DNA from: an uncultured virus (IMG/VR IMGVR_UViG_3300036760_001400) | Lineage: Duplodnaviria > Heunggongvirae > Uroviricota > Caudoviricetes | Strand: one strand, 5' to 3' | DNA: 64,000 nt | Virus record (IMG/VR): IMGVR_UViG_3300036760_001400 | In this document: piece after piece, positions 24,673 through 61,620 of the stretch | Position numbering within the stretch: the stretch's first letter is position 1 | Layout: each line of letters starts with the position of its first letter | Position numbers and translations under genes: made by a program | The notes under the pieces: model-generated | The model's input: only the letters and a program-made list of their open reading frames with translations | What the model was told of the DNA's origin: nothing | Database searches by the model: none

Positions 24673-25190
24673 GAGTATTCCCTTTCCAGAACGGACATCA
24701 GGATGTAGTCCAGGTATTCCCCGTGCCTGAAGACGGCTTCCCTGTAGCGTCCCTCAACACAAAAGCCGACCTTCTTGTAGAGTGCCATGGCCGCCTTGTT
24801 GGACTCAAGGACAGCCAGCCAGATCCTATGGCAATTAAGGTAATCGAAACAGTACCTCTTGAGAGTCTCATAGATCTTGTGACCGTAGCCTTGGCGTCTG
24901 AGCCTGACGGCCACGTCAGCGCCGATCCGAATGCTTCTATTCTGCTTGTCCCATTCATCCATCCTGACGAGACCAATGAACGGATGTATCTCATCGCATG
25001 CGATGAGATACATCCTTCCGGTAGACCACGAAAGTCCATCCAACCACTTCTTCTCATCGAGATCGGTGAGAATCGTAGGATCGGTCAACATCGACCAGGT
25101 CGAGAACTCGTTCCTGAGAGAACGGATCTCCTTCAGGTCCCCTTCCTTGGGAAGCCTGAGATCAAGTCCACCGCATGAAAAGATGGCCAT
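24669..25190 (-). CDS. GNAT N-acetyltransferase (RimJ/RimL or PseH-like)
   Basis: RRQGYG and NKAAMALYKKVGF motifs; adjacent to the aminotransferase. Confidence 0.85.
   Translation of the reverse strand: MAIFSCGGLDLRLPKEGDLKEIRSLRNEFSTWSMLTDPTILTDLDEKKWLDGLSWSTGRMYLIACDEIHPFIGLVRMDEWDKQNRSIRIGADVAVRLRRQGYGHKIYETLKRYCFDYLNCHRIWLAVLESNKAAMALYKKVGFCVEGRYREAVFRHGEYLDYILMSVLEREYS
24982..25015. repeat. perfect 34-bp palindrome inside the GNAT gene
   Basis: GGATGTATCTCATCGCA followed by TGCGATGAGATACATCC; both strands encode MYLIACDEIHP. Confidence 0.9.
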
Positions 25191-26084: not shown

Positions 26085-26150
26085 TACCGCCGTTGGCGGT
26101 AATGGGGGTGCCTTTGATGGCAGCCAGGAACTTGAGAAACCCTCTTCTAT

Positions 26151-30207: not shown

Positions 30208-30314
30208 GAATAAGCCAACCTTTCATGGTGAGATCCGTTCCAATACCAACAACGAGCGAGACTACCCGATCTGCAGCAAAAATGTCCTTCGCCATAATCA
30301 GCCCTCCTATACCA

Positions 30315-32345: not shown

Positions 32346-32474
32346 TACGAAACCTCGATTACCTTGAAAGGCCACATAAAGATGCGAAGGAAGGTTTCTT
32401 CAAGAGTCTTCTGTTCGCGATGAGCGACAGATCAAGCGTATTCATGGGCCCTTATGTCCCCTTAAGTAAAAGGG

Positions 32475-34559: not shown

Positions 34560-34841
34560 GTGGATCGTAGATCCTTTTTCAGGCTGATCGGAAGGGTCGC
34601 CGCGGCCGGCGTGGCGGCAAAGGTCGCACCCGGACTCCTCGTCGCTCAGGCTTCTTCCGAGTGTCCAATCGGGCTTCCAGGAGTCACTGGGGCTCAGGGC
34701 GTCCAAGGTTCGATCGGAGTCGCTTACAACTGGACCGGATGGAACTGTCAGCCTAAGGCCATCAGGTTCCCGTGTACTCGACAATCAGCTGCACTCTCAA
34801 GTTCGATGCTCCGGTCGCCACCTGAGGAACCTGCACGCTGA
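34560..34841 (+). CDS. protein with twin-arginine-like N-terminus and short collagen-like segment
   Basis: MDRRSFF...; GLPGVTGAQGVQG; 3' end overlaps the convergent gene. Confidence 0.45.
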   Translation: MDRRSFFRLIGRVAAAGVAAKVAPGLLVAQASSECPIGLPGVTGAQGVQGSIGVAYNWTGWNCQPKAIRFPCTRQSAALSSSMLRSPPEEPAR

Positions 34842-37263: not shown

Positions 37264-37266
37264 GGT

Positions 37267-37467
37267 CTATTCCAGGCCATCCTTCTTAGGCGTCATGTTC
37301 TTGATCGATCTGGAAACGGCGTTCGGGAACCGCTTTTCCGACAACCTCATCGCCTCCATGAAGTCGAAGGCCGGAATGACGATGGTCGTCTCTTTCCGGA
37401 CGGCCAGCGGTTTGCCAGGCACCCGCTCGAACCATTCCGCATGGACCTGATACTTGATGGCTTTCAT
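37267..37467 (-). CDS. hypothetical protein, 66 aa
   Basis: AAGGA SD before MKAIKYQV. Confidence 0.5.
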   Translation of the reverse strand: MKAIKYQVHAEWFERVPGKPLAVRKETTIVIPAFDFMEAMRLSEKRFPNAVSRSIKNMTPKKDGLE

Positions 37468-37475
37468 AGCGTCCT

Positions 37476-40400: not shown

Positions 40401-41513
40401 GGTGATGCCCTGCACACCTGTATCGATTCCCAGAGCACCGGCGGGAGAAGCTCCCGTGGGAGCTTCGCCCGTCAGACCTCTTTGGCCGGTCAGCCCCTGA
40501 ACTCCAGTCAGTCCCTGGACTCCGGTGAGTCCCTGCACGCTGAGACCGGTATTGCCGAGGATCCCCTGGGCACCCGTGATGCCCCTAGTTCCTGTCAGGC
40601 CTTTGACCCCGGTGAGCCCCTGCTCGCCGATCGGAGACGCGCCCGTGATGCCGACCGTTCCGGTCAGGCCTTTGACGCCGGTGATTCCTTGAGTTCCAGT
40701 AAGGCCCTGCACGCCCGTCAGCCCCTGGACGCCCGTGATCGCGTTTGCGCCGGTCTCACCTTTGGCGCCGGTCAGGCCTTTGATTCCCGTCAATCCCTGA
40801 ACTCCAGTCGGAGCTTCTCCAGGAACTCCCTGCGCTCCGGTGGGCTTGAATCCAAGGACTCCGCCCGCCGCGCCGGTCAGGCCCTGGACTCCGGTCGGCT
40901 GCGCTCCCGTGGGAGCAATGCCGGTCACGCCCTGGACGCCGGTCGCACCGCTCATGACACCGGTCAGGCCCACGAAGCCCTGAGCTCCCGTCAGCCCTTG
41001 ATATCCCGTGCCGATGAAGCCGGTCGCGCCTTTTACCCCGGTGATGAACTGGATTCCGGTCAGGCCCTGAACCCCGGTGAGCCCCTGAACGCCGGTCTGG
41101 CCTTTTACGCCCGGGAATCCCACGCCGGTCAGCCCTTTGATACCGGTCGGGCCGCGGATCCCGGTTGGCCCCTTGACCCCCGTCAGGCCGTCCACGCCGG
41201 TGAGTCCTGAGATGCCGGTGTCTCCGGAAAGCCCGGTGCCGCCGACGGACCCTGTGTCTGAACCTTGAGGGCCGGTCAGGCCTTTGATTCCCGTCAATCC
41301 CTGGACGCCCGTCAGGCCTTTTGTTCCAGTCAGACCTTGAGCGCCGGTCAGGCCATCCACACCGGTCAGACCTTGAACTCCAGTCAGACCTTGAGATGAG
41401 CCAGAAACGCCGGTGATCCCAACGACGCCGGTTCCACCTGGAGACGGAGCGGCAGCTCCGGTCAGGCCTTGGATGCCGGTAAGACCTCTGACGCCCGTGA
41501 TCCCTTGAGCCAT
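37476..41513 (-). CDS. collagen-like fibre protein with two paralogous globular domains
   Basis: GLTG/GITG repeats; duplicated domain (RKYLLV/RRYLIV, EISEFLQENKDWY/EISEQLQENTDWY, SAVFALNL/SAVFAIDL). Confidence 0.85.
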   Translation of the reverse strand: MAQGITGVRGLTGIQGLTGAAAPSPGGTGVVGITGVSGSSQGLTGVQGLTGVDGLTGAQGLTGTKGLTGVQGLTGIKGLTGPQGSDTGSVGGTGLSGDTGISGLTGVDGLTGVKGPTGIRGPTGIKGLTGVGFPGVKGQTGVQGLTGVQGLTGIQFITGVKGATGFIGTGYQGLTGAQGFVGLTGVMSGATGVQGVTGIAPTGAQPTGVQGLTGAAGGVLGFKPTGAQGVPGEAPTGVQGLTGIKGLTGAKGETGANAITGVQGLTGVQGLTGTQGITGVKGLTGTVGITGASPIGEQGLTGVKGLTGTRGITGAQGILGNTGLSVQGLTGVQGLTGVQGLTGQRGLTGEAPTGASPAGALGIDTGVQGITGIGGIGVQGVTGVTPTALPTAYTEQMTQQATSSLTYVTAATISSANFVAGRKYLLVINALMGISTNATGNNTKLVHGTTDFQGSRKFVNEQTNAGSTYTYTYFNVWTAIAGESITLQLKATNAGASATLDQITMFAMEISEFLQENKDWYSNVVDETTDLVPTEFSTYNNASVTFTPQNAGDDWLVLSESVLTGPPFSLVTTRLNRSGEASSTTPYLEYVQGYHVAFPWINLLSNVRAFNLSNVSNTFTEESRCDLGGPDGTRTYSAVFALNLSKFKNHLATYTDGGVTLDPPSFGTNIQTGSINPTWDGKTWALSSFGFTAPASDFPINARLQTDGVDTPAGQTAANLSIEKNVNVNQVGPVQFQYFGDLRSSSHTITVDGNNQAATSATAEFRQIIAITTDLATPVGARVQGMTGVQGITGNRGTGVQGLTGVSGITGVQVTGVKGITGNQPTGVQGLTSAVGITGIKGVTGVDVDGEPSQIPHYTAESTTPFSTTNGTLTLVPGAHIPSSFFITNRRYLIVATAVYGGGKTLNPNVSQIETIHGGGTPFDGSREWFHALNLRNGFNRQYTYFTVWTADGGDVDLAVINSDSPGGTTSVYTFKLLAIEISEQLQENTDWYYNAVLASTDLSSGAWSASNNASVSFSPSVAGHDWLVFTLSSLVPAVATTHENQSRMESTGTVTDTLPFLSTQCETQDSGDLVAPIIPFVNMRVFPALAIAAQSFTEESRTTPAGSATREASAVFAIDLNKFLDHQNAYTEASTAAATVQTVTLVPTRTADIWAFGSGQVSFGAVDESLIPDLLMAGVSQGDATNSGKSFSTSDLLPGQWMTVKRRSASTQFDLTMSGLTGSQGTAERSLFAVSMAPVVFVGIKGLTGVQGLTGIQGVTGTQPTGVIGLTGSRGITGIKGLTGVQGITGFQPTGIKGITGLMGITGLDIGITGVGGPTAGWYAGANSVDVSGNANWIFAACPP

Positions 41514-41516
41514 CGT

Positions 41517-44330
41517 CTAGGTCCCGGTGTACTGGACGATCAGTTCGACCCTCAAACCAATGGCGGCGGTTGCGATCTGAGGGACATCGACACTGAAGAC
41601 GTCCCCCTTCTTGAAAGCGGTGATATCGGGAGCAACCGCATTGCGGGCACGGTTGCCTTGAGTCACAGCAGACCCAATCATGGGACGGTTCGCAGCCGTC
41701 GTGAAGATCGTCCCGAACGTGACTTCATAGGGCGTGGTCGAGAGCGTGCCCGTGCCCAAGTTGACGTCGACGATCGTAGTGCCGGCGGTTCCCTGGGCCT
41801 GGACACTCATGAGAACGTCCACGATCGTGCCAAACCTTGGAGCGATCGTGTTCTGATCGATGCCGGAGGAGATTACGACAGTCGAAAGATTCCAGGCCAG
41901 CGTGTCAAGCGCGATGCCGGCGCCCGTGACGCCCTGGATACCCGTCGCTCCCTGGATTCCAGTGGTACCGGCTACTCCTGTAGTCCCGCGGATTCCTGTC
42001 GCACCTTGATTGCCGGTCGCTCCCTGGATTCCAGTTTCCCCTTGAACGCCCGTCCTGCCCTGGACTCCGGTCGCTCCAGCGACTCCTGTGGCACCCTGGA
42101 CGCCGGTCGCACCTTTTGCTCCAGTCGCACCCTGCACGCCGGTCGCCCCCTGAACTCCGGTCGCTCCTGCAGTTCCCGTAGCACCCTGAATGCCTGTGGC
42201 GCCATCTGTCCCGGTCTGCCCAATCGTTCCGGTGACTCCCTGGAGTCCGGTGACCCCCTGGATCCCGATGGGGCCCACTCCGGTCGTACCTTGTAGGCCA
42301 GTAGCGCCCTGAATGCCGGTTGCACCCGCCACGCCGGTCATGCCCTGGATGCCGGTGGTTCCCTGGATGCCCGTCGCCCCAGCCACACCGGTTGCGCCCT
42401 GAGCTCCGGTCGCGCCAATGACTCCGGTAGCACCCTGGATGCCGGTCGCGCCTCCTGTTCCGGTCGTGCCCTGGCCGCCGGTCGCTCCGATGACTCCAGT
42501 TGCTCCCTGAGCTCCGGTCGCGCCCTGGATGCCGGTTGCACCGTTAACGCCCGTCGCTCCAGAGACTCCCGTAGTCCCGCGGACTCCGGTGGTTCCTTGA
42601 GGGGCGGTGGCACCCGCGACTCCAGTCATGCCCTGCTGCCCGGTAGCCCCTTGAGTGCCCGTGGCCCCCTGCACGCCGGTCGCTCCGGCGACTCCCGTGG
42701 CGCCTTGCACGCCGGTGGTTCCTTGAGCCCCGGTGGCTCCCGCGACCCCCGTCGCGCCCGCCACGCCCGTGAACCCTTGGAGGCCGGTAATGCCCGCGAC
42801 TCCGGTCGCGCCTTTCGCCCCCGTCGCGCCCGCGACTCCCGTAGCGCCCGCGACTCCCGTCGAACCTTGGACGCCGGTGGTACCAAGAATTCCAGTCACG
42901 CCCTGCAGACCGGTCGCACCCTGGACGCCGGTTTCACCCTGAACCGCTACGCCCGCGACTCCTGTCGCGCCTTTTGCTCCAGTCGCACCCTGCACGCCGG
43001 TCGCGCCCGCAATACCTGTCTCGCCCGCGACTCCGGTCATGCCCCGAATACCAGTCGCGCCCTGAGTTCCGGTCGTACCCTGAATGCCTTGAGCTCCGGT
43101 CACACCCAAGAGGCCGGTCGCACCTTGAGTGCCGGTTGCTCCTTGGATGCCGGTCGCGCCTCCTGTTCCTGTTGAGCCTTGAGGGCCTGTGGGGCCGCCT
43201 GCACCAGTCGCGCCTTGAGCACCTGTGGCACCCTGCGCTCCGGTGGCACCCTGGACTCCTGTGGCACCCGCCACTCCAGTGGCACCGGCCACTCCTGTGG
43301 CTCCCTGCGGCCCGGTCACTCCTTGATTGCCGGTGGCACCCTGAACACCGGTCATTCCCCGAAGGCCCGTGATCCCGTCCACGCCGGTGGCACCTTGAAT
43401 TCCGGTCGCGCCTTGATCTCCGGTGTCTCCGATGAGGCCGGTGACTCCCGCGACCCCGGTCATGCCTTGGAGGCCGGTGATCCCACGGACTCCGGTCGCA
43501 CCCTTGATCCCGGTTGCTCCTGGATCAGGGCCCGTCTCGCCCGCGACTCCGGTTGTGCCGTCCACGCCGGTCGCACCGGCCACTCCCGTCGCTCCAACCT
43601 GTCCGGTTGCACCCTGGACTCCGGTCGTGCCTTGAAGTCCGGTAGCGCCCTGCACCCCTGTGGCGCCGGCGACTCCCGTGGCACCTTGCGGTCCAGTGAC
43701 TCCTGAGATGCCCGTGGCCCCTTGCGGCCCCGTCTGGCCCTGGCCTGATGCTCCGGTACTTCCCTGGATGCCGGTCACCCCTTGCGTGCCGGTGGGCCCT
43801 GGGATTCCAGTGGCGCCATCGATGCCGGTTGCACCCTGGACGCTTGTGGCGCCCTGCACGCCGGTCGCGCCTGAGACGCCCGTTTCACCTTGAAGTCCTG
43901 TTGAGCCGAACGTCCCCGTGATGCCCTGGACTCCGGTCGAGCCTTTCGCTCCGGTTGCGCCGTCCGTGCCGGTCGCGCCGTCCATCCCGGTCTCGCCCGC
44001 GACGCCGGTGGCCCCCACGGCTCCCGTGACGCCAATGGGGCCCGTCGCACCCTGGATGCCGGTCGCACCCCGTACGCCGGTCTCTCCACGGATTCCAGTT
44101 GAGCCGTCGATGCCGGTTGCACCATCGACGCCCGTTGCACCCTTGATTCCGGTAACACCATTAACGCCGGTAACTCCAAGAATGCCCGTCACCCCAGCAG
44201 GTCCGGTTGCACCCTGAAGGCCTGTCACACCCAGTGCTGAAGGGCCGGTTGTACCGTTGATTCCGGTAAAACCCTGAAGGCCGGTGACACCTTGAGTGCC
44301 ACCGCCCCCGCCCCCACCCATATCAGACAT
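41517..44330 (-). CDS. long collagen-like protein
   Basis: about 800 aa of [12 protein letters not shown] triplets plus a C-terminal globular domain. Confidence 0.9.
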
Positions 44331-44493
44331 ATATATTCTTCTTCGACTTTACATTGACCAGAAGCTGCCTTGACTTTTGATAGCAGGGAACACAGTAGCC
44401 GGTCGACTTCTTTCCGGGACCTCTGGGATCAATGGATCCCCAGCCCAGGAGCTTCCCGCACAGGATGCACTCGACCTTGTATCGGACATTCAC
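44323..44493 (-). CDS. 56-aa zinc-finger protein (not in the ORF track)
   Basis: AAGGA SD, GTG start, CILC...CVPC. Confidence 0.55.
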
Positions 44494-44504
44494 GACGAGT
44501 TCCT

Positions 44505-46250
44505 TTAGACGACAGCCACGACGTTATGCGAGATGCCTGCAGAGCCAGCCGTTCCATTCACACACACGATACCATTGTTGCCTGGATTCAGCCCCTTTAG
44601 CCCGCCGGCGCCTCCCGCTGCGGAAACAGTTGCCGTGCTTCCTGGAGGACCGATGAAGATGGAGAGGCCGCCGCCACCGCCACCGCCACCGCCGCCGCCA
44701 GGAGACCATAGGGTCGTACCCGGCAGATACGTATCACCGCCTGCGCCCCCGGCTCCGCCGGAAGCTAGGATACTCGGGCTGCCGGAGATCGTATTGCAGA
44801 TCACCACCGTGATGGCTCCGCCTCCGCCGCCTCCGCCTCCGCCGCCCGCACCGCCGGCGCCAGGGTTCACTCCTTGGAACCCCTCCCCGCCGCCTCCGCC
44901 GGCTCCGCCATCCCCGATCCCGCCGCCTCCGCCGCCCCCGCCTCCACTGTCCGATGAGCGGTTGACGCCGTCATTGTTGTCGTCCGTTCCAGACGATCCT
45001 CCCGCACCAGCCGATCCGGTGAAATGGAATGGGTCGTTATCGCTGAACCCGTTCGGAATGTAGATGTGATGCGGAGACCGGACAAAGCGAAGGTAATCCC
45101 TGCAGGTCCGGAGGACGTTGGTGACGGCTCCGTTTCCGATGCCCTTCGCTCCGCCGACGCTTGGCACGAATTGATATCCGGGAGCTGTAGCCGCCTTGCC
45201 TCCGGTCGTGGTGGAAATCTGGACACTCCATCCCATAAAATAATCTTCGACGCCGTCGATGTTCCCTTGTGCTCCGTTGGTAAGCCCTCCGGAGATAGCT
45301 CCGTTGGCTCCGTTCTGCCCGGCCTGGCCGCCGCCGATGTTTCCGCTGCCCACGAGGTGATTCGCAAACACGTAGAGGGCACCGGACTGGGCGCCTCCAT
45401 TCCCGCCGGCGCCAGCGCCGAATGTAGCCACACCCCCAGCGGGAGCAGTGCCGACCTTGGAGAAGATGGACCCACCGTTCAGCGTAAGCGTATCGCTGAT
45501 GTAGAGGACCATCCCCGTGTCTGAAGTGTCATGCGACAAGCTGAAACCTTGCAGATCGACGTTGGCGTAGCTCTTGATGTTGCTTCCGGCAGCCAGGACC
45601 GTGTTCGCACCCAGCGTCAGATCTCCGTCTGCACCGGACCCGAAGACCTCCCGGAACGAGTACCCGGCAATCGCCTGGCGAAGCTGGGTAGAAAGCGGCT
45701 GGGTGATGTCCCCGCCGATGTTATTGATGGTGGCACTGGATCCAGCCACGCCGGTAGCCCCCTGAGAGCCGGCAGTTCCGACGCCTGTCGCGCCTTTAGG
45801 GCCTGTAGCTCCAGCGCTTCCAACACCCGTCTGACCTTGGATTCCCGTGACTCCCTGAGTGCCTGTAGCCCCTTGAGGACCCCCTAAGGGGCCGGTACTT
45901 CCTTGGACACCGGTAGCTCCCTGAGCTCCTCCAGAAGGACCCGTAGGTCCAGCGCTTCCGATACCCGTTGATCCTTTAAGGCCTGTAATTCCTTGAACAC
46001 CCGTCGTACCTTGAGCGCCCGTGGAACCTACGAGACCCACGCCCGTCTGACCTTGAATCCCGGTTACACCCTTAGCGCCCGTAAATCCAGTGGCTCCCTG
46101 AACTCCGGTAGCTCCAACAGGCCCTCCAGAAGGGCCCGTAGGACCTTGAGTTCCGGTGGCTCCGATGGGACCTGCGGAAGGTCCAGTCAAGCCACGAAGA
46201 CCGGTAACCCCCTGGGCTCCGATTCCACCACCACCGCCGATTCTTGACAT
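44505..46250 (-). CDS. collagen-like protein with glycine-rich C-terminal domain
   Basis: G-X-T repeats, [10 protein letters not shown], poly-Gly tracts. Confidence 0.8.
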
Positions 46251-51045: not shown

Positions 51046-51918
51046 TTAGTGCTTGACCATCTGATCCCACATCAGGATCGACTCGATCCAGCCCAGGAGA
51101 CAAACCTCGACCTTACGGTCCACCTTGGCAAGGTTCGACGCTACGATTGAAACGTGGTGACGATCGGTGATCTCGATGAGCGTATTCCCGATCTGATCGG
51201 GGAGGCACTGAAGATCCTGGCTGTTCTGAGACTGGACCGTTCCGTAGATGATACCCCCGGACGTCACCGTAGAACCCTGGGACTGGGACATCCACTTGAT
51301 CCCGGATCCATCGACCTTGAATGTGACCCCGACCATAGAAGGACACAGGGCATCATAAACGAGCATCTTTGTCCACTTGAAGATGGTCCTCAAGTTGACA
51401 AAGGTATCGAAGGATCCGAGTTCTACTGTTCCGGGAATGACACCGTCCTCGGAAGCCGGGGCGTCCGCGCAGAAACTGTAACGAATGATCTCCGCATCAC
51501 GGGAAGGCTCGATGTGGATCTGCTTCTTGATGATCGGAAGCTGAGAGAAAGGCGGAGGGCATTCGAACGGAGCTATGGACGGACGGCAGTAAGGATTTTC
51601 AATCTGGGTCATCGCCTCAGACTCGACTCTCGGCTGGCGAAGCATCGCTTCCCCGGTCGGAATCATCTGAGCCTGAATTCCCCGACCCAGGATACGAGTC
51701 GGATCGTAGAGGATCTCGTCAGGCGTAGTATCTACATACCTGCGAGGGAATCCACGTTTGAACGATGGGTAGACTGGACTGTTGAACTTCTGGTACTGGG
51801 CCTCGGTCCGGACCCCATCATCAGGAATCTTCGCGTCATTGTCGTAGACGGAGGGACCCCTGTCTTCACTGGAATCAGAACCAGGGCGCCCAGGTTCGGG
51901 TCGCTTGAACATACTCAT
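51046..51918 (-). CDS. putative minor capsid protein with C-terminal jelly-roll-like domain
   Basis: C-terminal IEITDRHHVSIVASN...VEVCLLGW parallels the ends of the two upstream capsid-like genes. Confidence 0.45.
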   Translation of the reverse strand: MSMFKRPEPGRPGSDSSEDRGPSVYDNDAKIPDDGVRTEAQYQKFNSPVYPSFKRGFPRRYVDTTPDEILYDPTRILGRGIQAQMIPTGEAMLRQPRVESEAMTQIENPYCRPSIAPFECPPPFSQLPIIKKQIHIEPSRDAEIIRYSFCADAPASEDGVIPGTVELGSFDTFVNLRTIFKWTKMLVYDALCPSMVGVTFKVDGSGIKWMSQSQGSTVTSGGIIYGTVQSQNSQDLQCLPDQIGNTLIEITDRHHVSIVASNLAKVDRKVEVCLLGWIESILMWDQMVKH

Positions 51919-51944: not shown

Positions 51945-52457
51945 CTACCGAGTAAAAACTTTAATTCCGTGAATGACCAGCTCGATCGTCAGCGTCGCGC
52001 TTGCGCTCGTGTTGGTGATCTCCACCTGGATGGCAATGTTGGCACGGAAACGCCGACGTCCCTTGATGATGTAGGGACGCTGGGCGGTACCCGCGCCGTT
52101 ATCCGCATCAATGAAGTCGCCGTCCTGGGTCAGCGTCCGACCGACCGCTTCGCCTTCCTTGATCCTGAACCTGAAGGCATTCGTCGCCACGGGAGGCGTA
52201 GCCGCATCGACCGCCGTATAGGTGATCTCGATTGCGTCATAAGGGCCGTCGCCCGAGACGGTCTTCGTGATGACCGCCGTACCTCCGGGAGCGATCGAGA
52301 GAAACCGGAACGGAAAGAGAACCCAGTCCTCTGTCACATCCTCGGCAACTTTGAGGCGGCCAAGCTGGCCGATATATTGCTCGATACCGTTGATTCTATC
52401 GGCGATCTCCCCAAGCGAAGGCTCAGCGCCGAAACCGTTTCCACGTCGTCCGTTCAT
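51945..52457 (-). CDS. putative single-jelly-roll capsid protein
   Basis: all-beta 170 aa; GTAQRPYII...IQVEITNTS...IELVIHGIK; AGGAG SD; follows the putative MCP. Confidence 0.55.
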   Translation of the reverse strand: MNGRRGNGFGAEPSLGEIADRINGIEQYIGQLGRLKVAEDVTEDWVLFPFRFLSIAPGGTAVITKTVSGDGPYDAIEITYTAVDAATPPVATNAFRFRIKEGEAVGRTLTQDGDFIDADNGAGTAQRPYIIKGRRRFRANIAIQVEITNTSASATLTIELVIHGIKVFTR

Positions 52458-52499
52458 CGTCGTCTCCTAAGCACTCACTTGGACAGGTTTAAGGGAGAG

Positions 52500-52527
52500 C
52501 CCGGCTCCCCCTTTCGGGGGAGCCGGG
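52500..52527 (-). terminator. 12-bp hairpin downstream of the putative MCP gene
   Basis: CCCGGCTCCCCC/GGGGGAGCCGGG with GAAA loop on the - strand; no U tract. Confidence 0.5.
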
Positions 52528-52591
52528 ACTTGACTCCACATGGACAGCTACTTCATGTCTCAGTCGGCCGGCAATCAAGCCGACCTGACGG

Positions 52592-54621
52592 TTACATGAT
52601 GGGCTTCGTCCGGCGTCCGAGGAAGAGCACGCGCAGGCGGACCGACTCCGTAGGAGCGATACCGCCCGACCAATCCAGCAGCACCGTGAAGGTGTCGCCC
52701 GGATCGATCGTCACCAGGAACGGCCTCGTGAACGAGAGGACGTTGGTGATGTTGCCCGGCCCGGCAACCGACCGGAACTCGGGAGCCGCCGCGGCCCCGC
52801 GGACGGACTCGAGGAGCGACGCCCCGCCCATGACGAACTCGATGGGGATCGGATCGGGGATGTCGACAGAGTTGATGACCAGCGTGAAGCTGCCGTTCTG
52901 GACCAGCTTCGCGTTGGCGGTGAGGGTCAAGTCCTCCATTTTCACTCAGCGTATCCACGTCTTCTATTATGCACGTGGGCCGGACTGTATATTCGCCGGA
53001 TCTCGGCGGCCTTGTCAGTCTCTAGCGCGTGGATCCATTGTTTTCACGCGACGGTCTCGTGCCCGCTTGGGCTTTAACCGTTATTCGGCTGTTGCATGAA
53101 GGCTTCCGCCTTCAAGGGGCAATGTTAGTTTACCCAGGACCTGATCTGGAAGGCATTGACACCTGTGAGCTGTCCACCGCAGTCTGTTACTTTAATTGAC
53201 CAGAACCAAGGTTCTGGCGGTCACCTATTTCTAAGTGACTCCCGCTGTTTCCAGCGGGTTCAGAACGTATCATCGACTCGGCTTCGAGTCGCCCTTTGTC
53301 CTGAGGAGAACCAAGTTTGTGGCGGAGAGAAGGAACAAAATATTGTTCCAAGCGAGGAGCCATCTTATCTCGCCAGTCTTTCCATCGGAAATAGATGTTG
53401 AAGTAGACGCGCAGTGTTCCATCCTTCAGATAGTTCTTGTCTTTGTAAACTACCGAAGAAATTCCATACCGCAAGTCAAGCCAACCGCTGATAAGCTTGT
53501 TCTCTTCCTCCGTATAGCCATGAGTACAAAGCTTAACATTGTGGTTGACTACCTTGAGCTTATCCTTGCGATACTTGTGGCTAGAACTCCCATCGTCCAT
53601 AAACCAGATAGCCATTCCATGATCATCAAGCTGATCAAGAATCCTCTGGTTAACAGTCTTATAGAGCTTTCTGGTACCGTTCGAGTAATGCTCTACACGA
53701 CAGTTCTCATGAAAGATAGACCACAACTTCTGCCACTCAACATCACCTGATGTTCGGAATCTCCAAGTTGGCCATTCCTTCCCATTTACGGAAGACATGA
53801 TCATTTTTGGAGCAGCACGTACCATAGGCTTCAGCAGATCATATTTGTAAAACACATACTCCTTCTGGGCTTCTGAATGACCCAGCTCCATCATTGCCTT
53901 CTTGCCACGAGGATTAATGCTGGCGTCACCAAGCATCATCCCGTACAAAATGCTTCGATGGGTGTTTACAAAACGACGAACTGTCAGCGTATCTACATGC
54001 TTAACATCAGCGTTTCCCACAAAGGTTCTCCTGGTTCGTTCGGGCGGAGTTCCCTTTGATCCAAGGGGTTTCCGCCACGGTATTGTCTCAACGCGCTCAC
54101 TACACGTCAAGAGTTCCACCGTTATTAGGGTTCTCATCCAAGGTTACCCTTGGAGAGGGCCGAAGTTGACCTGCATGTTGGTTTCGGTCGCGGTCTTTCC
54201 GCCCTGCCCTTCGGGAACAGAGAAATACCTCTGCTCCGTGGTCAGGGTCGGCGTGGCTGCAACCGTGTTGGTATCATACAACCCGCTTGTTACCAATGAC
54301 TTGCGTCATTGGGATAGATCCTTTCGGTCTACCTCTTGCAGTTCGTTTTCTGCAAGTCCAGACTGTTGCATCACCCCGAAGGGTGCCCTCTCGCTCAGTC
54401 GTTCACGGTGACCATGATTATAATCGTGATCTTCCGCCTCGTTGGCATCTCAGCGTTCGAGTCAATCAGAGAGAGTTTTACAGGCGCCAGTTGCACAAAC
54501 GCCTGGTACACGTTTTTCGCCGGATCGTAACGTGTTGAAATTCAAGGACTTATTGTCCTTGGTCCCACGGTTTCATGAGGTTTCACTCAAGAAGGGCGCG
54601 ATCACCCTTGACGCGAGACAT
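52592..54621 (-). CDS. putative major capsid protein (single-jelly-roll type), spliced from five exons, 185 aa
   Basis: exons 54604-54621, 54499-54520, 54169-54283, 53132-53179, 52592-52946 total 558 nt and read MSRVKGAKNVYQAWLYDT...YFSVPEGQGGKTATETNMQVGGQL...FQIRSWVVKMEDL...LRVLFLGRRTKPIM without stops; AGGAG SD; high GC3. Confidence 0.7.
52947..53131 (-). mobile_element. group I intron 4, 185 nt, no ORF
   Basis: exon GGGU pairs with GCCC (U-G); P10 CAUU/AGUG; P7 GACUG/CAGUC; P9 CCACGU/ACGUGG; terminal G. Confidence 0.8.
53180..54168 (-). mobile_element. group I intron 3, 989 nt, with homing endonuclease
   Basis: exon ends in U, P1 GGUC/GGCC; P4 CGGU/ACCG; P7-like GAACG/CGUUC; ends GUAACAGACUG; removal restores MQV-GGQL. 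Confidence 0.8.
53187..54020 (-). CDS. intron-encoded LAGLIDADG homing endonuclease (two motifs)
   Basis: ILYGMMLGDASI and MAIWFMDDGS; AGGAG SD before GTG 54020; AT-richer than the exons. Confidence 0.88.
   Translation of the reverse strand: MGNADVKHVDTLTVRRFVNTHRSILYGMMLGDASINPRGKKAMMELGHSEAQKEYVFYKYDLLKPMVRAAPKMIMSSVNGKEWPTWRFRTSGDVEWQKLWSIFHENCRVEHYSNGTRKLYKTVNQRILDQLDDHGMAIWFMDDGSSSHKYRKDKLKVVNHNVKLCTHGYTEEENKLISGWLDLRYGISSVVYKDKNYLKDGTLRVYFNIYFRWKDWRDKMAPRLEQYFVPSLRHKLGSPQDKGRLEAESMIRSEPAGNSGSHLEIGDRQNLGSGQLK
54284..54498 (-). mobile_element. group I intron 2, about 215 nt, no ORF
   Basis: P1 CAGGCGU/GCGCCUG; P10 UGCAACU/GGUUGUA; P7 GACUG/CAGUC; ends GUAACAAGCG; junctions uncertain by 1-2 nt. 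Confidence 0.8.
54521..54603 (-). mobile_element. 83-nt group-I-like mini-intron (intron 1) with no visible catalytic core
   Basis: P1 AAGGGU/GCCCUU; P10 UCGC/GCGA; terminal G; unspliced frame hits TGA; removal restores the frame. Confidence 0.6.
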
Positions 54622-54795
54622 ACAAAACTCCTGAAACGTTCGACGGGTTGTAAGCGGGTTATCCCGTCAATCCCGCATATACCCAATCTCCAGCTGATCA
54701 GGCTGGAGAAAGAGATCATCTTTCTTTACCAGACGAAGCCCGTTTTTCAAAGATCCATGACGATCTTTCCATCGCCATGTACAACCAATCAATAT

Positions 54796-54870
54796 TGGTA
54801 GCGAGTCTTGGAGTCGCACCAGGTCCTCCGGCTTATGAAACCGGCGAAGCACCTCGGCTTCCGACTCGCG
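54796..54870 (-). tRNA. tRNA-Met (CAT), initiator-like
   Basis: acceptor GCGAGT/ACTCGC with 1:72 mismatch, anticodon arm CCGGT-TTCATAA-GCCGG, T-loop TGCGACT, encoded CCA. Confidence 0.85.
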
Positions 54871-54890
54871 CTATCTATCACAGAGCAAAC

Positions 54891-54925
54891 AAAAAAGGCC
54901 CGGAGAGCTTTCGCTCTCGGGCCTT
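54891..54925 (-). terminator. intrinsic terminator between the promoter and the tRNA/MCP
   Basis: GGCCCGAGAGC-GAAA-GCTCTCCGGGCC followed by TTTTTT. Confidence 0.75.
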
Positions 54926-54962
54926 GTGTGCCCCGCGTTGGACCTGTTGTCCCTTGGTGATG

Positions 54963-54990
54963 ATTATACGGTATGGCCGGTTAAGATCAA
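54963..54990 (-). promoter_or_regulatory. sigma70-type promoter
   Basis: TTGATC-16-TATAAT. Confidence 0.55.
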
Positions 54991-55014
54991 GAACTAAAAT
55001 GAAAGGAGAGCGTT

Positions 55015-55428
55015 ATGCGATTCACGGTAAACTTCGACCCGAAAAACCTCAGCGTGAAAAAGCCTGAATTCGAGGTAGAGAATTTCTTCATCATTCCCGG
55101 CTCAAGGATCGAAAATCTCAAGGAAGGCTATGGTCTGAAGATCTCCAGCATGGTCTGCATCCGATGTGAACGCGATATCATCCAGATCTCCGCATGTTCA
55201 AACGGAACCGGAAGTCTCGTGTGCCAATGTTCCTACTGGTCTTCCGATATATCCCCTTTCAGTGGGACAGCCCATGTCCAGGGGAGCTTGAAACACGAGT
55301 CTATCATGAGTGTCGAACAAAAAGCAGAGATGCTTCTCAGAGAGCTTACGAACGATCGCGACAATATCTATCAGGAAAGAAAGGGATTCACCCCTGAAGT
55401 CCGCAGAGCTCTCAAGGAGCTTCTTTGA
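55015..55428 (+). CDS. Cys-containing hypothetical protein, divergent from the capsid operon
   Basis: AAAGGAG SD; CIRC...CQC. Confidence 0.6.
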   Translation: MRFTVNFDPKNLSVKKPEFEVENFFIIPGSRIENLKEGYGLKISSMVCIRCERDIIQISACSNGTGSLVCQCSYWSSDISPFSGTAHVQGSLKHESIMSVEQKAEMLLRELTNDRDNIYQERKGFTPEVRRALKELL

Positions 55429-55443
55429 TCACGGCATGAGTAG

Positions 55444-55478
55444 AAAAAGAAAGGGCCCCCCTTTCGGGGGGCCCTTCT
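55444..55478 (-). terminator. intrinsic terminator between convergent genes
   Basis: GGGCCCCCC/GGGGGGCCC stem with a U-rich tail on the - strand. Confidence 0.7.
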
Positions 55479-55498
55479 ATCTACAAGCCCTGGAGGCT

Positions 55499-56815
55499 TT
55501 AGAACATCGCCGAGTCTTCGCTCGGCTCCTCGTCCCCTACGTCACCCAGGAGCTCCTCCTCGGTCACGATCCGCTGCCCGACATCGCTGACATCCCGGAG
55601 TTCATCCTGATCCGGAATGCGGGCCTGCGAAAGGTAACCCAGGTCGCGGAGTTCATCCTGGTCGGGAATCCGTGCCTGACCCAGACCGAACCCGGAGAGA
55701 CCCGGGATCTTCGGAAGGACATACGGCTTGACGAGCTCATCCTCGATGAACCGGCCGAAAGCGTACATCGCGCCGTACTGAGCCAGATTCCCGGACCCGA
55801 CGAGCCGGCCCAGCTCCCACGAGCCGACCGCCGACAGCGCCACGGGCGCGAACCTGGACAGAAGACCCATGATCCCCGGATCAGCGGGCTTGAGGAACGT
55901 GAGCATCCCGGTCAGTTTCTTCGCCGCCGCCGTGATGATGGGCGAGAGAGAAACGCCGCCGAGAGCCTCAAGACCGGACATGGAGGCAGCCATCTGGAAG
56001 GGCCCGACGATCGGCATGGAACCGGCCACCGAAGCGTCGGCGAGGCCAGCCATCATGCTCGAGTATCCGAGACCCTTGAGACCGAAGAACGACCCCAGGC
56101 CGCCCATCTTGCGACCGCCACGACGGCTACGACGCCGGGTGGAACGAGCCCGACGACTCCCACGACGGGAACGACGGGTCCGACGGGCCGCGCGATGACG
56201 ACGACGGGTCGCCTTCGCCTTACGACGGCTCTTCCGACGCTTCTTGTGGGACCCAAGGCCAGACAGGCCCTTGAGAGCCGCAAGCGTCTGGGACAGACCG
56301 CTCATGCGACGACGACGACCGCTGGACTTCCGACGCTTGTGACGACGGACCTTCGGTGCCGAGATCTTCGCGATGGTACGGGCAGCCGACTTCCGACGCC
56401 GACGGCTCCGACGCTTGGTCTTGGGAGCCTCGACAACAACCTGGCGATGACGCCGACGGCTGCTGCGACGACGACGGCCATGGACGCGAACCCGACGCGA
56501 ACGACGGGAACGCCGACGACCATGGGCGCGAACCCGACGGGAACGCCGACGGCTCTTCGACCGACGATGGCGCCGACGGCTCTTGACCCGACGAGCGCGG
56601 CCACGCGACCGATGCTTACGGCCCTTCCGACTCTTACGGCCCTTACGAGCCTTCCGCGTGCGACCGAGGCCTACATAGCCAAGGCCGTCCTCATCGTCCC
56701 CGTAATCACCGAGGCCGGAGAGGTCCGTGTCCAGGACATCCATGGGATCCATCTCATCGAGATCGATCTCATCTTCCCAGACAGGAGCGGAATTCGACAG
56801 GAGCTTCTTGGACAT
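55499..56815 (-). CDS. Arg/Ser-rich putative DNA-condensing core protein precursor
   Basis: AGGAG SD before MSKKLL; acidic N-terminus, about 180 aa of Arg-rich tracts punctuated by GLG/GLS, hydrophobic region, QARIPDQDELRD twice. Confidence 0.7.
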   Translation of the reverse strand: MSKKLLSNSAPVWEDEIDLDEMDPMDVLDTDLSGLGDYGDDEDGLGYVGLGRTRKARKGRKSRKGRKHRSRGRARRVKSRRRHRRSKSRRRSRRVRAHGRRRSRRSRRVRVHGRRRRSSRRRHRQVVVEAPKTKRRSRRRRKSAARTIAKISAPKVRRHKRRKSSGRRRRMSGLSQTLAALKGLSGLGSHKKRRKSRRKAKATRRRHRAARRTRRSRRGSRRARSTRRRSRRGGRKMGGLGSFFGLKGLGYSSMMAGLADASVAGSMPIVGPFQMAASMSGLEALGGVSLSPIITAAAKKLTGMLTFLKPADPGIMGLLSRFAPVALSAVGSWELGRLVGSGNLAQYGAMYAFGRFIEDELVKPYVLPKIPGLSGFGLGQARIPDQDELRDLGYLSQARIPDQDELRDVSDVGQRIVTEEELLGDVGDEEPSEDSAMF

Positions 56816-56905
56816 GTGTAATTCTCCTGGAAAACCACCTGCAAAGGGCGCTAAGCCCCAGGACATCCGTTCGAAGACGGCCCCAAACAAGGGGACATCT
56901 CAACG

Positions 56906-57341: not shown

Positions 57342-57878
57342 TTAAGACAACTTCGATAAAACAACCAGGAAGGAATATCGGTCTGGTCCTATATCCGGCT
57401 CAAAAAGATCGATCGAAGTCTCTTTTAGCTGCTCGAGGTACCACATGAACACTTCCATCGTCAGGAAGTGGGCGTGAGCTGGATTCCTGACCTTTGGATT
57501 CGCGGGATCGTACTTGTAATGGACCTCGCTCGGCAGGTAAAGGATCATCTTTCCACCTGGCTTTACGAATGAAAGCCAGTACCTGAGGGTTTCGAGTATA
57601 GGGTTCTTCACATGCTCCAGTGCATGGCTCGAGAAAAGGACATCGTAGAACTGAGGTCTCTTTGAAACGAAAAGCTCATGGACAAGAACACCGGAGTGAT
57701 CAGGATCGATAGGAGACGCGATATCGATAGATGGAGGCTTCTTCGACCACTCCCTGGCGTCATCCACGCCGACAGCCCACGGTACGATCTTGGTGCCCCC
57801 GCATCCCAAATCGAGAACACTCTTTCCTTTGAGATAGGAAAGAACGCGTGGAAGAATCTTCTCGCCTTCAGTGGCCAC
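57342..57878 (-). CDS. class I SAM-dependent methyltransferase
   Basis: VLDLGCG, FSSHALEH, VKPGG. Confidence 0.85.
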   Translation of the reverse strand: MATEGEKILPRVLSYLKGKSVLDLGCGGTKIVPWAVGVDDAREWSKKPPSIDIASPIDPDHSGVLVHELFVSKRPQFYDVLFSSHALEHVKNPILETLRYWLSFVKPGGKMILYLPSEVHYKYDPANPKVRNPAHAHFLTMEVFMWYLEQLKETSIDLFEPDIGPDRYSFLVVLSKLS

Positions 57879-57886
57879 TTTCCGTC

Positions 57887-59455
57887 CTACGTGTAGAATC
57901 GTCTGGGAGAAATACCTTTAAGCTGGTATTCCCGGACAGAAGTCTCGCTTTCCGAGATCACCTGAGCAGGCTCAAGCTTGTCCATACAGTAGACCTTGTC
58001 CCTGAAGCATCCTGTCGTGACTCGTGGAGCTTGAAGGTAATGGTTGCATCCGAGGCAGCCGACATTTTCCGCCATCACACCACGAAAGTATGGAGTATCC
58101 GGAGGAAGCCTGTAAGCAGGATCAATACATCCAAAGACCGCTGCGATGGGAAGGTCAGCTGCAACCGCCAAGTGCATCGGAAACGAATCGATTCCAATAT
58201 AGAGAGAAGCCCGCCTCATCAGGCATGCCAGCTGATGCATGGTTGTCCGGTTCCTGAGATCAAGGTCACAGGGTACGGAGTTGTTGAGAATGAATCCGGT
58301 GAGTACCGTGAAGTAACCCTTTTTACGCCAGTAGTTCACGACTTCCGCGAACTTTACGTTGGTCCAGTTCCTCCCGACCCAGGCCGTGGGTCCAGGATTG
58401 ATGATCAGAATCGGCCTTCCCCTTGGAACGGTGGCATCAGCCCAACGGTCATCGTCAGAAGTCGGAAAGACCTCTGGAATATAGCTATCCAACTTGACGT
58501 CACAGGCTTCTGCATAAGCCTTGACGATATGGATCATAGGCCGGCGTTCATAGGCGAAGTCAAGGTCGTAGAAGTGGTCGTAGTTGGTGATGGGAAGCCT
58601 GAAACCGTTCTCGAGACGATCGATATTGGGGTTACGGGTCACGATATCCGGGAATCCGGTGATAAGCGAAATCTTCACATCAGGCCACTTCTTCCTGAGA
58701 GACCTGAAGATCGGGGTCACCAGAAGGACATCCCCGGTAGCTGAAGTCCTTCGGATCAAGACCGTCTTTGAGAAACTTCTCCGTTCAAGATAGTTCTTCC
58801 ACTGGTTCTTGAATATGGCCGCATTCCTGGCCTTGTATCCATCGAGATCAACGGTCTTTTTGACGAGTTCGGAAGTCTTTGATCCATGATGGAGGAGCTT
58901 CACATCGGCCTGGGAGATCAAGTAACCGGCTTCCCTCATCCGAAGCGAATAGTCCGCGTCCTCGTTATAAGCGAACCGATATATATCCAGGAAGAGCCCA
59001 TGCTTCCTGGCAAGGGAAACGGGGGTCATGAGACATGAACCCTCGATATATTCGACAACAGTTCCAGGGCATCCGACCCCTTCCTTTGTCAAGGCGGAAC
59101 ACTGGCCTTTGGTTCCTACGACAGCAACCTTCGGATCACTGAAACATGCTCCCATGGTCGTGAGCCAGCTTGGAGGGACTTCGACATCATTGTTAAGGAC
59201 AACGAAATACTCCCCCTTGGCCATCAGGAGAGCGTTGTTATGGGGAACCCCAAATCCAAGATTCTTCTCGTTCCGAACAACAATGACCCTGGGATCCGCT
59301 AAAGCCAGAGCATCCAGATAATCCAGGGTATCCTTCTCCGAAGCATTGTCCGTGACAATCAGCTCGAAATCAGAGCTATGCTTGAAAATGGAATCAAAAC
59401 ATCCCCGGGTGAATCCGAGGAGATTATGAACCGCGACAGAGATGGAGTATTTCAG
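57887..59455 (-). CDS. GT2 + GT9 fusion glycosyltransferase, probable CTG start
   Basis: frame stays open upstream of ATG 59224 as KYSISVAVHN...IVTDNAS...NLGFGVPHN; GT9 motifs GDVLL, IGIDSFPMHLA. Confidence 0.85.
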   Translation of the reverse strand: MKYSISVAVHNLLGFTRGCFDSIFKHSSDFELIVTDNASEKDTLDYLDALALADPRVIVVRNEKNLGFGVPHNNALLMAKGEYFVVLNNDVEVPPSWLTTMGACFSDPKVAVVGTKGQCSALTKEGVGCPGTVVEYIEGSCLMTPVSLARKHGLFLDIYRFAYNEDADYSLRMREAGYLISQADVKLLHHGSKTSELVKKTVDLDGYKARNAAIFKNQWKNYLERRSFSKTVLIRRTSATGDVLLVTPIFRSLRKKWPDVKISLITGFPDIVTRNPNIDRLENGFRLPITNYDHFYDLDFAYERRPMIHIVKAYAEACDVKLDSYIPEVFPTSDDDRWADATVPRGRPILIINPGPTAWVGRNWTNVKFAEVVNYWRKKGYFTVLTGFILNNSVPCDLDLRNRTTMHQLACLMRRASLYIGIDSFPMHLAVAADLPIAAVFGCIDPAYRLPPDTPYFRGVMAENVGCLGCNHYLQAPRVTTGCFRDKVYCMDKLEPAQVISESETSVREYQLKGISPRRFYT

Positions 59456-59994: not shown

Positions 59995-61620
59995 TTAAAA
60001 CTCCAAGTCCATTTTCTTAAAAATCACCGGACTCTGCCATCCCAATTTAGCTCCAGAGACAGTTGGATCGCTGGCAATCCATGGAGACCGTTCCGTAGGT
60101 TTCGCGACCACATATACGTGGGTATACTGCTCGGGTACTTCAGGATTTGCAGCAATTGCACGCGCTCCTACACCTGGGAAGCCAACCATGAGCAGCATGG
60201 CTCCTTCAAGCATGGTCTTATCGTCGCAGTTATGCTGAACGAGACCTTCCTCGGTAACCACATTGTGATTATCAAGAACGGTGATATCGCAACACTCGGC
60301 CTCTCCAGCCTCTTCAAACTTCTTAAGAGGAGCAGGAGCAAGGTCGGTAGAAACAGGCTTGTAGCCCCTGATATTTTTCCGCTCGATCAACCTCCAGATA
60401 GGAGAATGGCCAGCTCCCATATGGTTCATCTGGAGATACGGATGGAGTGTCCGTCCCATAACCAAATGAACAAGGCAAAGCATCCTGGCCAAGTGAGAAG
60501 AAGACGTGTTATGGATCAAGTTTGCATACTTAGCCCAAGCATGTTCGTCCTTGGGTTTGTAGGCATCTCCCAAAGCATAACCATCGATCAGAGCCTCGAG
60601 TTCAGACCTGGTCTTCGAGAGATAGTCCTCAGGAATCGTCTTCTCAAAAGACCCGCGTCCAAACTTCCTGAGGATCTCTTCTCGGAAGGCGTGATTCGAG
60701 GTACGCATGACCTTGACGCCATTGGACTGATGGGTCACGTAGTAAGGAACTCCGATCCGACCCATCGCGTCCGTAAGGAACGAAAAGAGAACAGGATCCT
60801 TGATCCCGATCGAAACGCGCTCATGGTTTCTATGATTCTTTTCATACCACCCTTCGGCCAAGTACATTCCTTCGATAAAGAGCCTGTCCGAAGTGGTCGC
60901 ATCAACGGAACCAAGCTCAGGAATCTTGAGAGCAAACGGAAGACGAGGAGCTCTCTTGTCTGTGAAGGACGAGAAGATCTCGTTAGCTCTTGCCTCCCGC
61001 TTACCAGGGCTCTTCCCTGAAGCCAGGAAGTAATCCATAAGATGCTGACTCGAGACCCTGAGTTCACGCGCGTTCTTCGTCCTGAGCTTGTATGTCTCCT
61101 TCACTCCCTTGTCATACCAGGCCACGATCGGCTTGAACTCAAAGGAGCTGATACCATAGTTGTACGAAAGAGCGTCATACTCGGCAAAGGAACCTTCGAG
61201 TTCACCGAGGCGCTTCACTCGATACGTATTATCGAGCTTCCTACGAAGGATAACCTTCGTATCTTTCTGGAAAGCATCCCCTCCTCCGATCATGAGCGTC
61301 CGGGCCGGCCAGACGAGCGTCTCGTGCTTCCGAGCATCACGCGTCCAACGGATATCGTCTCGAACAAAATCATGGATAGCCTTGTACTCACCAAGAAAAT
61401 CCTTCGGACGGACGCCGGCCTTCAGGATCGTGGCAATGGCCGCCTCACGGATGACCGGTCCATGCTCAGGGTGACGGACACTTTTCCAGACGATCTCTTT
61501 CATCCGGATCAGCGTGGCTTTCGTTCCCTTGTCTCCCCCTGGAATGGGAGTCAAGGTAAGACGTGAAGGAGGAAGAACACCAAGCCGGGTGGCTTGGGCA
61601 AGATTCCACATACGTGCCAT
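59995..61620 (-). CDS. transglutaminase-like cysteine protease containing an intein (192 aa after splicing)
   Basis: exteins join as GGGD-CDDK; THVY and SDPT complete a Cys-His-Asp triad; HDFVRDDIRW...D motif. Confidence 0.8.
   Translation of the reverse strand: MARMWNLAQATRLGVLPPSRLTLTPIPGGDKGTKATLIRMKEIVWKSVRHPEHGPVIREAAIATILKAGVRPKDFLGEYKAIHDFVRDDIRWTRDARKHETLVWPARTLMIGGGDAFQKDTKVILRRKLDNTYRVKRLGELEGSFAEYDALSYNYGISSFEFKPIVAWYDKGVKETYKLRTKNARELRVSSQHLMDYFLASGKSPGKREARANEIFSSFTDKRAPRLPFALKIPELGSVDATTSDRLFIEGMYLAEGWYEKNHRNHERVSIGIKDPVLFSFLTDAMGRIGVPYYVTHQSNGVKVMRTSNHAFREEILRKFGRGSFEKTIPEDYLSKTRSELEALIDGYALGDAYKPKDEHAWAKYANLIHNTSSSHLARMLCLVHLVMGRTLHPYLQMNHMGAGHSPIWRLIERKNIRGYKPVSTDLAPAPLKKFEEAGEAECCDITVLDNHNVVTEEGLVQHNCDDKTMLEGAMLLMVGFPGVGARAIAANPEVPEQYTHVYVVAKPTERSPWIASDPTVSGAKLGWQSPVIFKKMDLEF
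60229..61275 (-). mobile_element. intein, 349 aa, with LAGLIDADG-type domain and Ala at position 1
   Basis: block A AFQKDTKV, block B LRVSSQH, GMYLAEG and GYALGD, block F CCDITV..NHN, C-terminal HN then Cys. Confidence 0.85.

Follow-up and report, generated by a model that had tools for sequence, protein, structure and literature searches.

How can a virus gene that is broken four times within its first 203 coding nucleotides (nt) still give rise to one protein, and what would remove each of the interrupting pieces? The question is posed by a gene on the minus strand of a 64,000-nt stretch of DNA, called the window below, from an uncultured sediment virus of the Caudoviricetes (IMG/VR record IMGVR_UViG_3300036760_001400). 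A preliminary description of this locus (52592..54621) had proposed a capsid-like gene split into five exons by four group I introns. Our analysis supports the split gene, places introns 2, 3 and 4 among the group I introns on comparative grounds and finds intron 1 to be a short insert that lacks the catalytic core. We consider it likely that the locus is a conserved 185-amino-acid (aa) gene of an uncultured large DNA virus, encoding a jelly-roll and probably structural protein, with four mobile-intron insertions in its first 203 coding nt.

A conserved gene in five exons

The start codon of the gene is the ATG at 54621, preceded at a distance of 6 nt by a putative Shine-Dalgarno sequence (AGGAG, 54628..54632), a layout that is also present before the start codons of intronless relatives. 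Following the minus strand, on which all exons, introns and signals of the gene lie, exon 1 (54604..54621, 18 nt) encodes MSRVKG, identical to the N-terminus of 185-aa homologues, and has U as its last base; exon 2 (54499..54520) is a 22-nt micro-exon encoding AKNVYQA and the first base of W14; exon 3 (54169..54283) measures 115 nt; exon 4 (53132..53179) is a 48-nt micro-exon, GGQLTGVNAFQIRSWV; and exon 5 (52592..52946) measures 355 nt including the stop codon. Joined by these coordinates, the five pieces give 558 nt, that is 185 codons and a stop, as had been proposed, and the translation contains the junction peptide TNMQVGGQL. The list of open reading frames (ORFs) displays exon 5 alone (52592..52945, 117 aa), in agreement with the earlier remark that the other exons go unseen.

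When an uninterrupted 185-aa homologue (P0002) was used as the tblastn query against the window, its residues 8–58 matched exon 3 (E 5e-17), residues 53–68 matched exon 4 (16 of 16 residues identical, E 2e-5) and residues 65–185 matched exon 5 (E 2e-68), with a weak match to exon 2 (E 13). The joined coding sequence is 71.9–82.1% identical to six uninterrupted homologous genes of 558 nt, and five of the six alignments contain no gap column, the remaining one (L009) having two. The preliminary description had staked itself on a double failure, no hit by any group I model together with a loss of colinearity with homologues; the public group I model RF00028 indeed gave no hit, and colinearity held.

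Of 43 protein relatives of the exon 5 piece, 35 are 183–190 aa long, 20 of them exactly 185 aa; the window's own clipped gene call measures 115 aa. The relatives' proteins begin MSRVKGAKNVYQ.W and include VGGQLTGVNAFQIRSWVVKM, as encoded by exons 1–4, and mean column identity across the gene family is 71%. The GC content is 0.62 in the exons versus 0.47–0.55 in the inserts, and no second copy of the gene lies within the 64-kb window (of a contig of ~148 kb). Judged by these comparisons, the five-exon gene is confirmed.

Assembly error as the source of the split structure, or of the shortness of intron 1, can be given next to no credence. The window does come from a metagenome, and conserved cores common to related introns could confuse assemblers; against this, an independent contig set holds the whole 2401-nt stretch without differences, a different sample holds identical pieces, one of which spans the border between intron 4 and exon 5, and exon 2, which would have been lost had introns 1 and 2 been collapsed into one another, is present. 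The contigs of four DNA runs, among which cover is patchy beyond one run, showed no allele of this virus without the introns.

Splice junctions and guide pairing

U is the last base of the upstream exon, and G the last base of the insert, at all four junctions. Junction 2 is fixed in position; each of junctions 1, 3 and 4 could be shifted by no more than a single base, and of their possible placements only that of the preliminary description gives U...G. The rule it had invoked is obeyed with little or no sliding freedom.

Pairing between the guide of each insert and its flanking exons was compared with 30000 random U...G site pairs drawn from the window. The guide of intron 2 forms a P1 of 7 base pairs (bp) and a P10 of 10 bp (17 bp, p about 1.3e-4), and that of intron 1 a P1 of 6 bp and a P10 of 4 bp (10 bp, p about 0.019), both beyond chance. 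The third base of the G6 codon (54604), which is the last base before intron 1, gives GGT here and GGA or GGC in six intronless relatives, so that the 5'-splice-site U of intron 1 is specific to the intron-bearing allele.

An insertion hotspot in the gene family

The four introns of the window lie after coding nt 18, 40, 155 and 203. We fetched 25 distinct contigs with a homologue (L002–L026; L001 is the same contig as L017), in which the gene is uninterrupted in 18, interrupted in three (L005, L017 and L018), cut by the contig end in three (L012, L024 and L025) and ambiguous in one (L022). In both L005 and L017 a single intron splits the Y11 codon behind nt 31, and these introns pass the gathering score of RF00028 (51.1 and 55.7 bits versus 50). 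In L018 the gene is interrupted at three places, behind nt 21, behind nt 40 and within the V184 codon (about nt 551); all three introns resemble intron 2 of the window, and one shares its site at nt 40. Insertions thus occur at seven or more different sites across the gene family, and four of these sites fall in the first 40 nt. Since relatives are interrupted at three sites beyond those of the window (nt 21, 31 and about 551), the hotspot that had been suggested from the window is real.

The introns of L018 (3501–3746, 3766–3999 and 4510–4746) form one family with 77–90% mutual identity; the first two are separated by a 19-nt exon, and the third stands two codons ahead of the stop. L022 begins inside the apparent 3' end of an intron (1–150), which ends ...AAGACAAAUG just before the F62 codon. 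At default filters this piece was matched by neither of the covariance models described below, and it may mark an eighth insertion site.

Two covarying families of group I introns

Intron 2 (54284..54498, 215 nt) contains no ORF, lacks P2 and has a P1 of 7 bp; we call its relatives the I2 family. A 17-nt core motif retrieved 29 IMG/VR loci, nearly all of them homologous. The resulting alignment holds 25 sequences, namely the window intron, the three introns of L018 and the introns of 19 of these 29 loci (two copies each from two of them); we dropped L027 and L028, which are truncated or were retrieved on the motif alone, L031, L053, L048 and L050, in which the 5' part is displaced, and the near-duplicates L047, L051, L054 and L055. 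In a structure drawn by hand (P3-P4-P6-P7-P8-P9, including the P3/P7 pseudoknot), 97.7% of 771 cells pair, versus 35.5–48.9% when the partners are slid by 1–3 columns. Two-sided compensatory change occurs in 17 of the 31 pairs, including the P3/P7 pseudoknot, P7 itself varying between G-C, A-U and U-A, and none of 500 shuffles reached the covariation score. On this evidence intron 2 has group I topology, with a core from P3 to P9 that covaries together with its P3/P7 pseudoknot. A profile built from relatives matches it at 54338–54481 (E 7.6e-30). The family, which shares the conserved motif GAACGACUGAGCGAGAG, is present in no fewer than 25 further virus contigs among L027–L055, twice in L033 and in L042.

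Intron 4 (52947..53131, 185 nt), likewise without an ORF, defines an I4 family. A pattern for P7 and J8-7 retrieved 55 IMG/VR loci, 13 of which were kept; most of these match most or all of the profile length and a few about half or more. Across the 14 sequences, window included, 81.4% of cells pair, versus 31.3–43.9% with slid partners, and 24 of 42 pairs show compensatory change, with P2, P3, P4, P6 and P8 well supported. The relatives-built profile matches intron 4 at 52964–53122 (E 3e-19).

Two covariance models were built from these families, R1 from the P2–P6 half of the intron-4 family (13 sequences, none from the window) and R2 from the P8–P9.2 half and tail of the intron-2 family (14 sequences, all from other contigs). 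R2 matches intron 2 at 54277–54396 (71.3 bits), and R1 matches intron 4 at 53014–53116 (51.9 bits, E 3.3e-10). R1 also matches the introns of L005 and L017 at about 1e-5 and, as these are certified by RF00028, this ties the intron-4 family to recognised group I introns. By its covariation, then, intron 4 is a group I intron of a second covarying family. Elsewhere in the window, R2 has a weak match on the minus strand at 55411–55523 (10 bits, E 0.053), where an arginine-rich 463-aa ORF (55499–56890) has its 3' end; the match may be due to chance.

A mosaic intron with a homing endonuclease gene

Intron 3 (53180..54168, 989 nt) was matched by both models. R1 matches its 5' half at 54039–54156 (27.6 bits, E 5.4e-5, the next match having E 2.7), and R2 matches its 3' half at 53178–53302 (50.1 bits, E 7e-13), with its terminal G coinciding with the predicted 3' splice site. 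This 3' half had escaped a profile of the intron-2 family based on sequence alone and was picked up by the covariance model. By eye, P7 can be traced as GAACG (54041–54037) with CGUUC (53267–53263) and P3 as CCCU with AGGG. A search for relatives with a 17-nt pattern gave one match, which was a chance one. As judged from the two models, intron 3 is a mosaic, with a P2–P6 half of the intron-4 type and a P8–P9.2 half and 3' tail of the intron-2 type.

The longest ORF in intron 3 (53187..54137, 316 aa) has a LAGLIDADG_2 domain at residues 61–251, which scores 90.2 bits against Pfam PF03161 (cut-off 25, E 1.9e-25), and both LAGLIDADG-type motifs, LYGMMLGDA and IWFMDDGSS, are visible in the translation. 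The claim that only one of the four introns holds an endonuclease is thereby upheld. A homologous LAGLIDADG gene lies in L021 (1416–2099), ~190 nt downstream of an intronless homologue of the split gene. The two enzymes are 33% identical (E 1e-33), the conservation extending only over residues 53–276 of the intron-3 ORF, and a GTG at 54020 is preceded by AGGAG; given the limits of the conserved part, this GTG is the likely true start of the enzyme, and the outer ends of the 316-aa ORF are probably ribozyme sequence that stays open by chance. As read from the sequence, the loop that holds the ORF is closed by a 9-bp stem of AGGAGAACC (54032–54024) with GGUUCUCCU (53312–53304), which would sequester the ribosome-binding site of the endonuclease. 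More distant LAGLIDADG relatives (25–27% identity) were set aside for the ribozyme comparison.

An insert that lacks the catalytic core

Intron 1 (54521..54603) is only 83 nt long and comprises a guide at insert nt 3–12, two small hairpins and a terminal G. The guide is the reverse complement of the ligated junction, save at the U.G position. Beyond P1 and a P2-like hairpin there follow only one 7-bp hairpin and a 22-nt tail, and the region folds better than all of 200 shuffles (z -2.93). We found no P3, P4, P6, P7 or P8 in it, and neither R1 nor R2, which match the other three inserts, matched it. Lacking P7, intron 1 has no guanosine-binding site, and lacking a core it cannot be an autonomous ribozyme. 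The description of four group I introns is therefore overstated: it stands for introns 2, 3 and 4 on covariation and the covariance models, and fails for intron 1, which has no P3–P9 core. That all four inserts splice autonomously, as first supposed, is highly improbable; the U...G rule at every junction and the good P1 and P10 of intron 1 speak for it, and the size of intron 1, set beside the 185–215 nt of the complete ORF-less introns of this gene, speaks against it along with the missing core and the silence of both models.

Intron 1 nonetheless retains marks of the group. Its first 36 nt are weakly similar to the certified L005 intron in their P1–P2–J2/3 layout (p about 0.04), the L005 intron being the only one of nine intron sequences in local alignment to give even a marginal match. 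Intron 1 looks like a group I intron that has lost its catalytic core, a derivative that would have kept the guide, P1, P10, the P2-like hairpin and the terminal G. It is either still removed or the allele is dead.

Introns 2, 3 and 4 are complete group I ribozymes, which should excise themselves by the usual guanosine-initiated two-step transesterification, and intron 3, whose endonuclease is intact and has both motifs, would be the mobile member. For intron 1 we prefer the reading that it is removed by group I chemistry with a core borrowed from one of its neighbours in the transcript, and we give this a probability of roughly 0.4. Intron 1 would be non-autonomous, with a neighbouring core docking its P1 helix and terminal G. 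Intron 2, which starts only 22 nt downstream of intron 1, is the likeliest candidate for the helper, and this more specific arrangement is possible, if doubtful.

Several results weigh against our account of the locus as a whole. A cmscan of the whole window against Rfam gave no family at the gathering threshold; in 52300–55100 at E ≤ 10, RF00028 matched none of the four inserts, the scan of this interval returning just two chance-level matches. The Infernal check that the preliminary description had proposed was thereby negative. RF00028 likewise matches none of the three intron-2-type introns of L018, and the public model is insensitive to the introns of the window. The guides of intron 3 (3 + 3 bp, 6 bp in all, p 0.34) and intron 4 (4 + 4 bp, 8 bp, p 0.088) do not pair beyond chance; because of this the plausible P1/P10 pairings earlier ascribed to all four inserts are informative for introns 1 and 2 only. 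P5 and P9 of the intron-4 family align poorly (53.6% and 60% paired), P7 is invariant in that alignment because the loci were selected by a P7 pattern, and the helices of intron 3 have no covariation of their own, since it has no close relative. As for intron 1, a 20-nt pattern for relatives had 0 matches in viral contigs, and its pairing with the other introns is no stronger than that of shuffles (z -1.2 to +1.0), although duplex prediction says nothing on tertiary docking. The accessible literature, which includes few subscription journals, yielded no natural precedent for a helper-dependent, small or degenerate group I intron, and we infer the helper role of a neighbouring core.

Alternatively, intron 1 may be a recent internal deletion that killed splicing, in which case no full-length protein would be made and the window would hold a defective or decaying copy. 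We regard this as rather unlikely. It would fit with the lack of any known way for a core-less group I remnant to splice, with the pattern search, in which no relative carries intron 1, with the frame from exon 1, which hits a stop 21 nt into intron 1, and with the single copy of the gene in the window. It sits badly with a gene family that is strongly conserved (mean column identity 71%), with five exons that are all intact and colinear, with a contig that is abundant (word depth ~79) and has identical pieces in a second sample, and with a guide sequence that still perfectly matches both exons.

The in-frame stop also bears on a further alternative, in which intron 1 is retained in the mRNA and bypassed by the ribosome as in gene 60 of phage T4, whose coding gap is given a degenerate-group-I derivation (PMC5009743). 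Intron 1 is short and structured and has that in-frame stop; against this, take-off would occur at GGU and exon 2 is preceded by CCG, which leaves the take-off codon without a matching landing codon, the stop comes six codons past take-off and not adjacent to it, and a landing on GGC nearby would put the conserved AKNVYQA in the wrong frame. Bypassing is accordingly very unlikely. We also considered by eye an archaeal bulge-helix-bulge structure for intron 1, which needs two 3-nt bulges, symmetric cuts round a 4-bp helix and a flanking exon-exon helix. A 4-bp UCGC/GCGA helix exists, with the cuts 2 nt and 0 nt away and no exon-exon helix, and this candidate was ruled out.

The protein and its genomic setting

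An AlphaFold model of the homologue P0002, computed from 38 sequences (predicted local distance difference test, pLDDT, 76.9), is a jelly roll. Its best fold matches are the coat protein of satellite panicum mosaic virus (Z 7.3), the SPV1 capsid protein (Z 7.0) and a PBCV-1 capsid component (Z 7.0); non-viral or unrelated sandwiches score as high as Z 6.4, values of this order being common. The best Foldseek matches had E 5e-3 in the PDB and E 2e-5 in BFVD, the latter to an unnamed protein. Searches of Pfam and PHROG at E ≤ 0.1 gave no family for four full-length homologues or for exon 5 alone, and for the 185-aa protein the Atlas gave nothing beyond unnamed virus clusters. With a best Z of 7.3 and no Pfam or PHROG family, the earlier term 'capsid-like' amounts to a fold-level guess. 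On the strength of the model the 185-aa product is a conserved jelly-roll protein of the structural module, and a capsid-like role is possible.

Around the split gene, the neighbouring proteins of 170 aa (gene at 51945–52457, minus strand) and 125 aa look beta-rich by eye; a profile comparison of the 185-aa protein with both found no relation. The product of the second gene downstream (51046–51918, minus strand, 290 aa) is disordered in its N-terminal half and forms a beta-sandwich towards the C-terminus (residues 124–282), and its best matches include the SPV1 capsid chain (Z 7.0) that the 185-aa protein also matches. Directly downstream of the small structural genes, five consecutive large ORFs of 338–1345 aa (34762–46250, minus strand) have collagen triple-helix repeats in three of the five (up to E 9e-111) and match tail-fibre PHROGs in all five. 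A dense glycosylation block follows at 22365–32375 (minus strand), with multi-domain glycosyltransferases, a nucleotide-sugar epimerase, an aminotransferase and acetyltransferases, and a methyltransferase stands with a heptosyltransferase-like gene at 57342–59224.

A 541-aa ORF at 59995–61620 (minus strand), ~5 kb from the intron cluster, contains an apparent intein with a LAGLIDADG domain; the Pfam matches to Intein_splicing and LAGLIDADG_3 are sub-threshold, and residues 146–195 match a DnaX mini-intein with E 7e-5, the only match in PDB sequence searches with three neighbouring ORFs. No terminase, portal or HK97 capsid protein was recognised in the window, terminase Pfam models had no match in a 106-kb related virus record (65% complete), and a tRNA scan found none.

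Comparison with known systems

The density of inserts means that each ribozyme of this gene must find tiny exons amid three other structured RNAs on the transcript, while gene callers detect the last exon only. The family-wide hotspot offers a natural system for the study of how introns choose their homing sites, and since two intron families common in environmental viruses are missed by the public model, the intron content of viromes is under-counted. If intron 1 is spliced, a group I intron can outlive the loss of its ribozyme by using that of a neighbour. Such reliance of one group I intron on the catalytic core of another would, if true, be the first to be seen in nature, and an RNA counterpart of the miniature transposon that borrows a transposase. 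The group III introns of Euglena chloroplasts, at ~100 nt, are a stripped-down ribozyme class with presumed trans-acting help; they derive from group II introns and belong to a eukaryotic organelle, unlike intron 1, which is related to group I.

Among phages, gene 60 of T4 has a 50-nt coding gap that is thought to be a degenerate group I intron (PMC5009743). Gene 60 and the window gene have in common a short non-coding insert in a phage gene and differ in that gene 60 has matched take-off and landing codons, whereas intron 1 lacks these and has a full guide for both exons. Group I introns in virion genes are known from the LittleE capsid gene, the BAKA tail gene and the Tuc2009 capsid gene (Pope et al. 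2013, PMC3706429). In the mycobacteriophages, the LittleE capsid intron carries a LAGLIDADG gene and the BAKA tail intron is ORF-less, and both were recognised as here, by intronless relatives and the U...G rule (PMC3706429). They differ from the window gene in having one intron per gene and splicing shown by reverse transcription PCR, whereas the window introns are known from DNA alone, a look for RNA runs that contain the stretch having listed none.

Genes with two or three introns are reported from the Bastillevirinae and from phage Twort (PMC11878797). In a three-intron gene of Twort, exon skipping and cross-talk among neighbouring group I introns have been described (PMC3073962). Like the window gene, it has several related, closely spaced group I introns in one phage gene, and there is evidence from it that splice sites of neighbouring introns can be combined. 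The difference is that the three introns of Twort are complete, with no core-less member in the available passages of that report.

The nearest parallel in number is a metagenome-assembled genome (cMAG) of a Zeta-group crAss-like phage, in which the major capsid protein gene is in five fragments (Yutin et al. 2021, PMC7886860), and the earlier statement that multi-intron genes are uncommon needs qualifying in its light. Both cases combine a phage structural gene, four inserts and a genome rich in introns and inteins, the window having its own intein-bearing ORF. The crAss-like inserts were recognised via endonuclease domains, present in three of the four, in a large capsid gene (PMC7886860). 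In the window gene, unlike that case, three of the four inserts are ORF-less and all lie inside 203 nt of a 558-nt gene, the exons include pieces of 18, 22 and 48 nt, one insert is core-less and the product belongs to no recognised capsid family. Since earlier work has described group I introns in virion genes and a five-fragment capsid gene, the phenomenon in general is not new; what is unusual in the window gene is the density of its inserts, its micro-exons, its three ORF-less inserts, the mosaic make-up of intron 3, two intron families that RF00028 does not see and an insert without a core.

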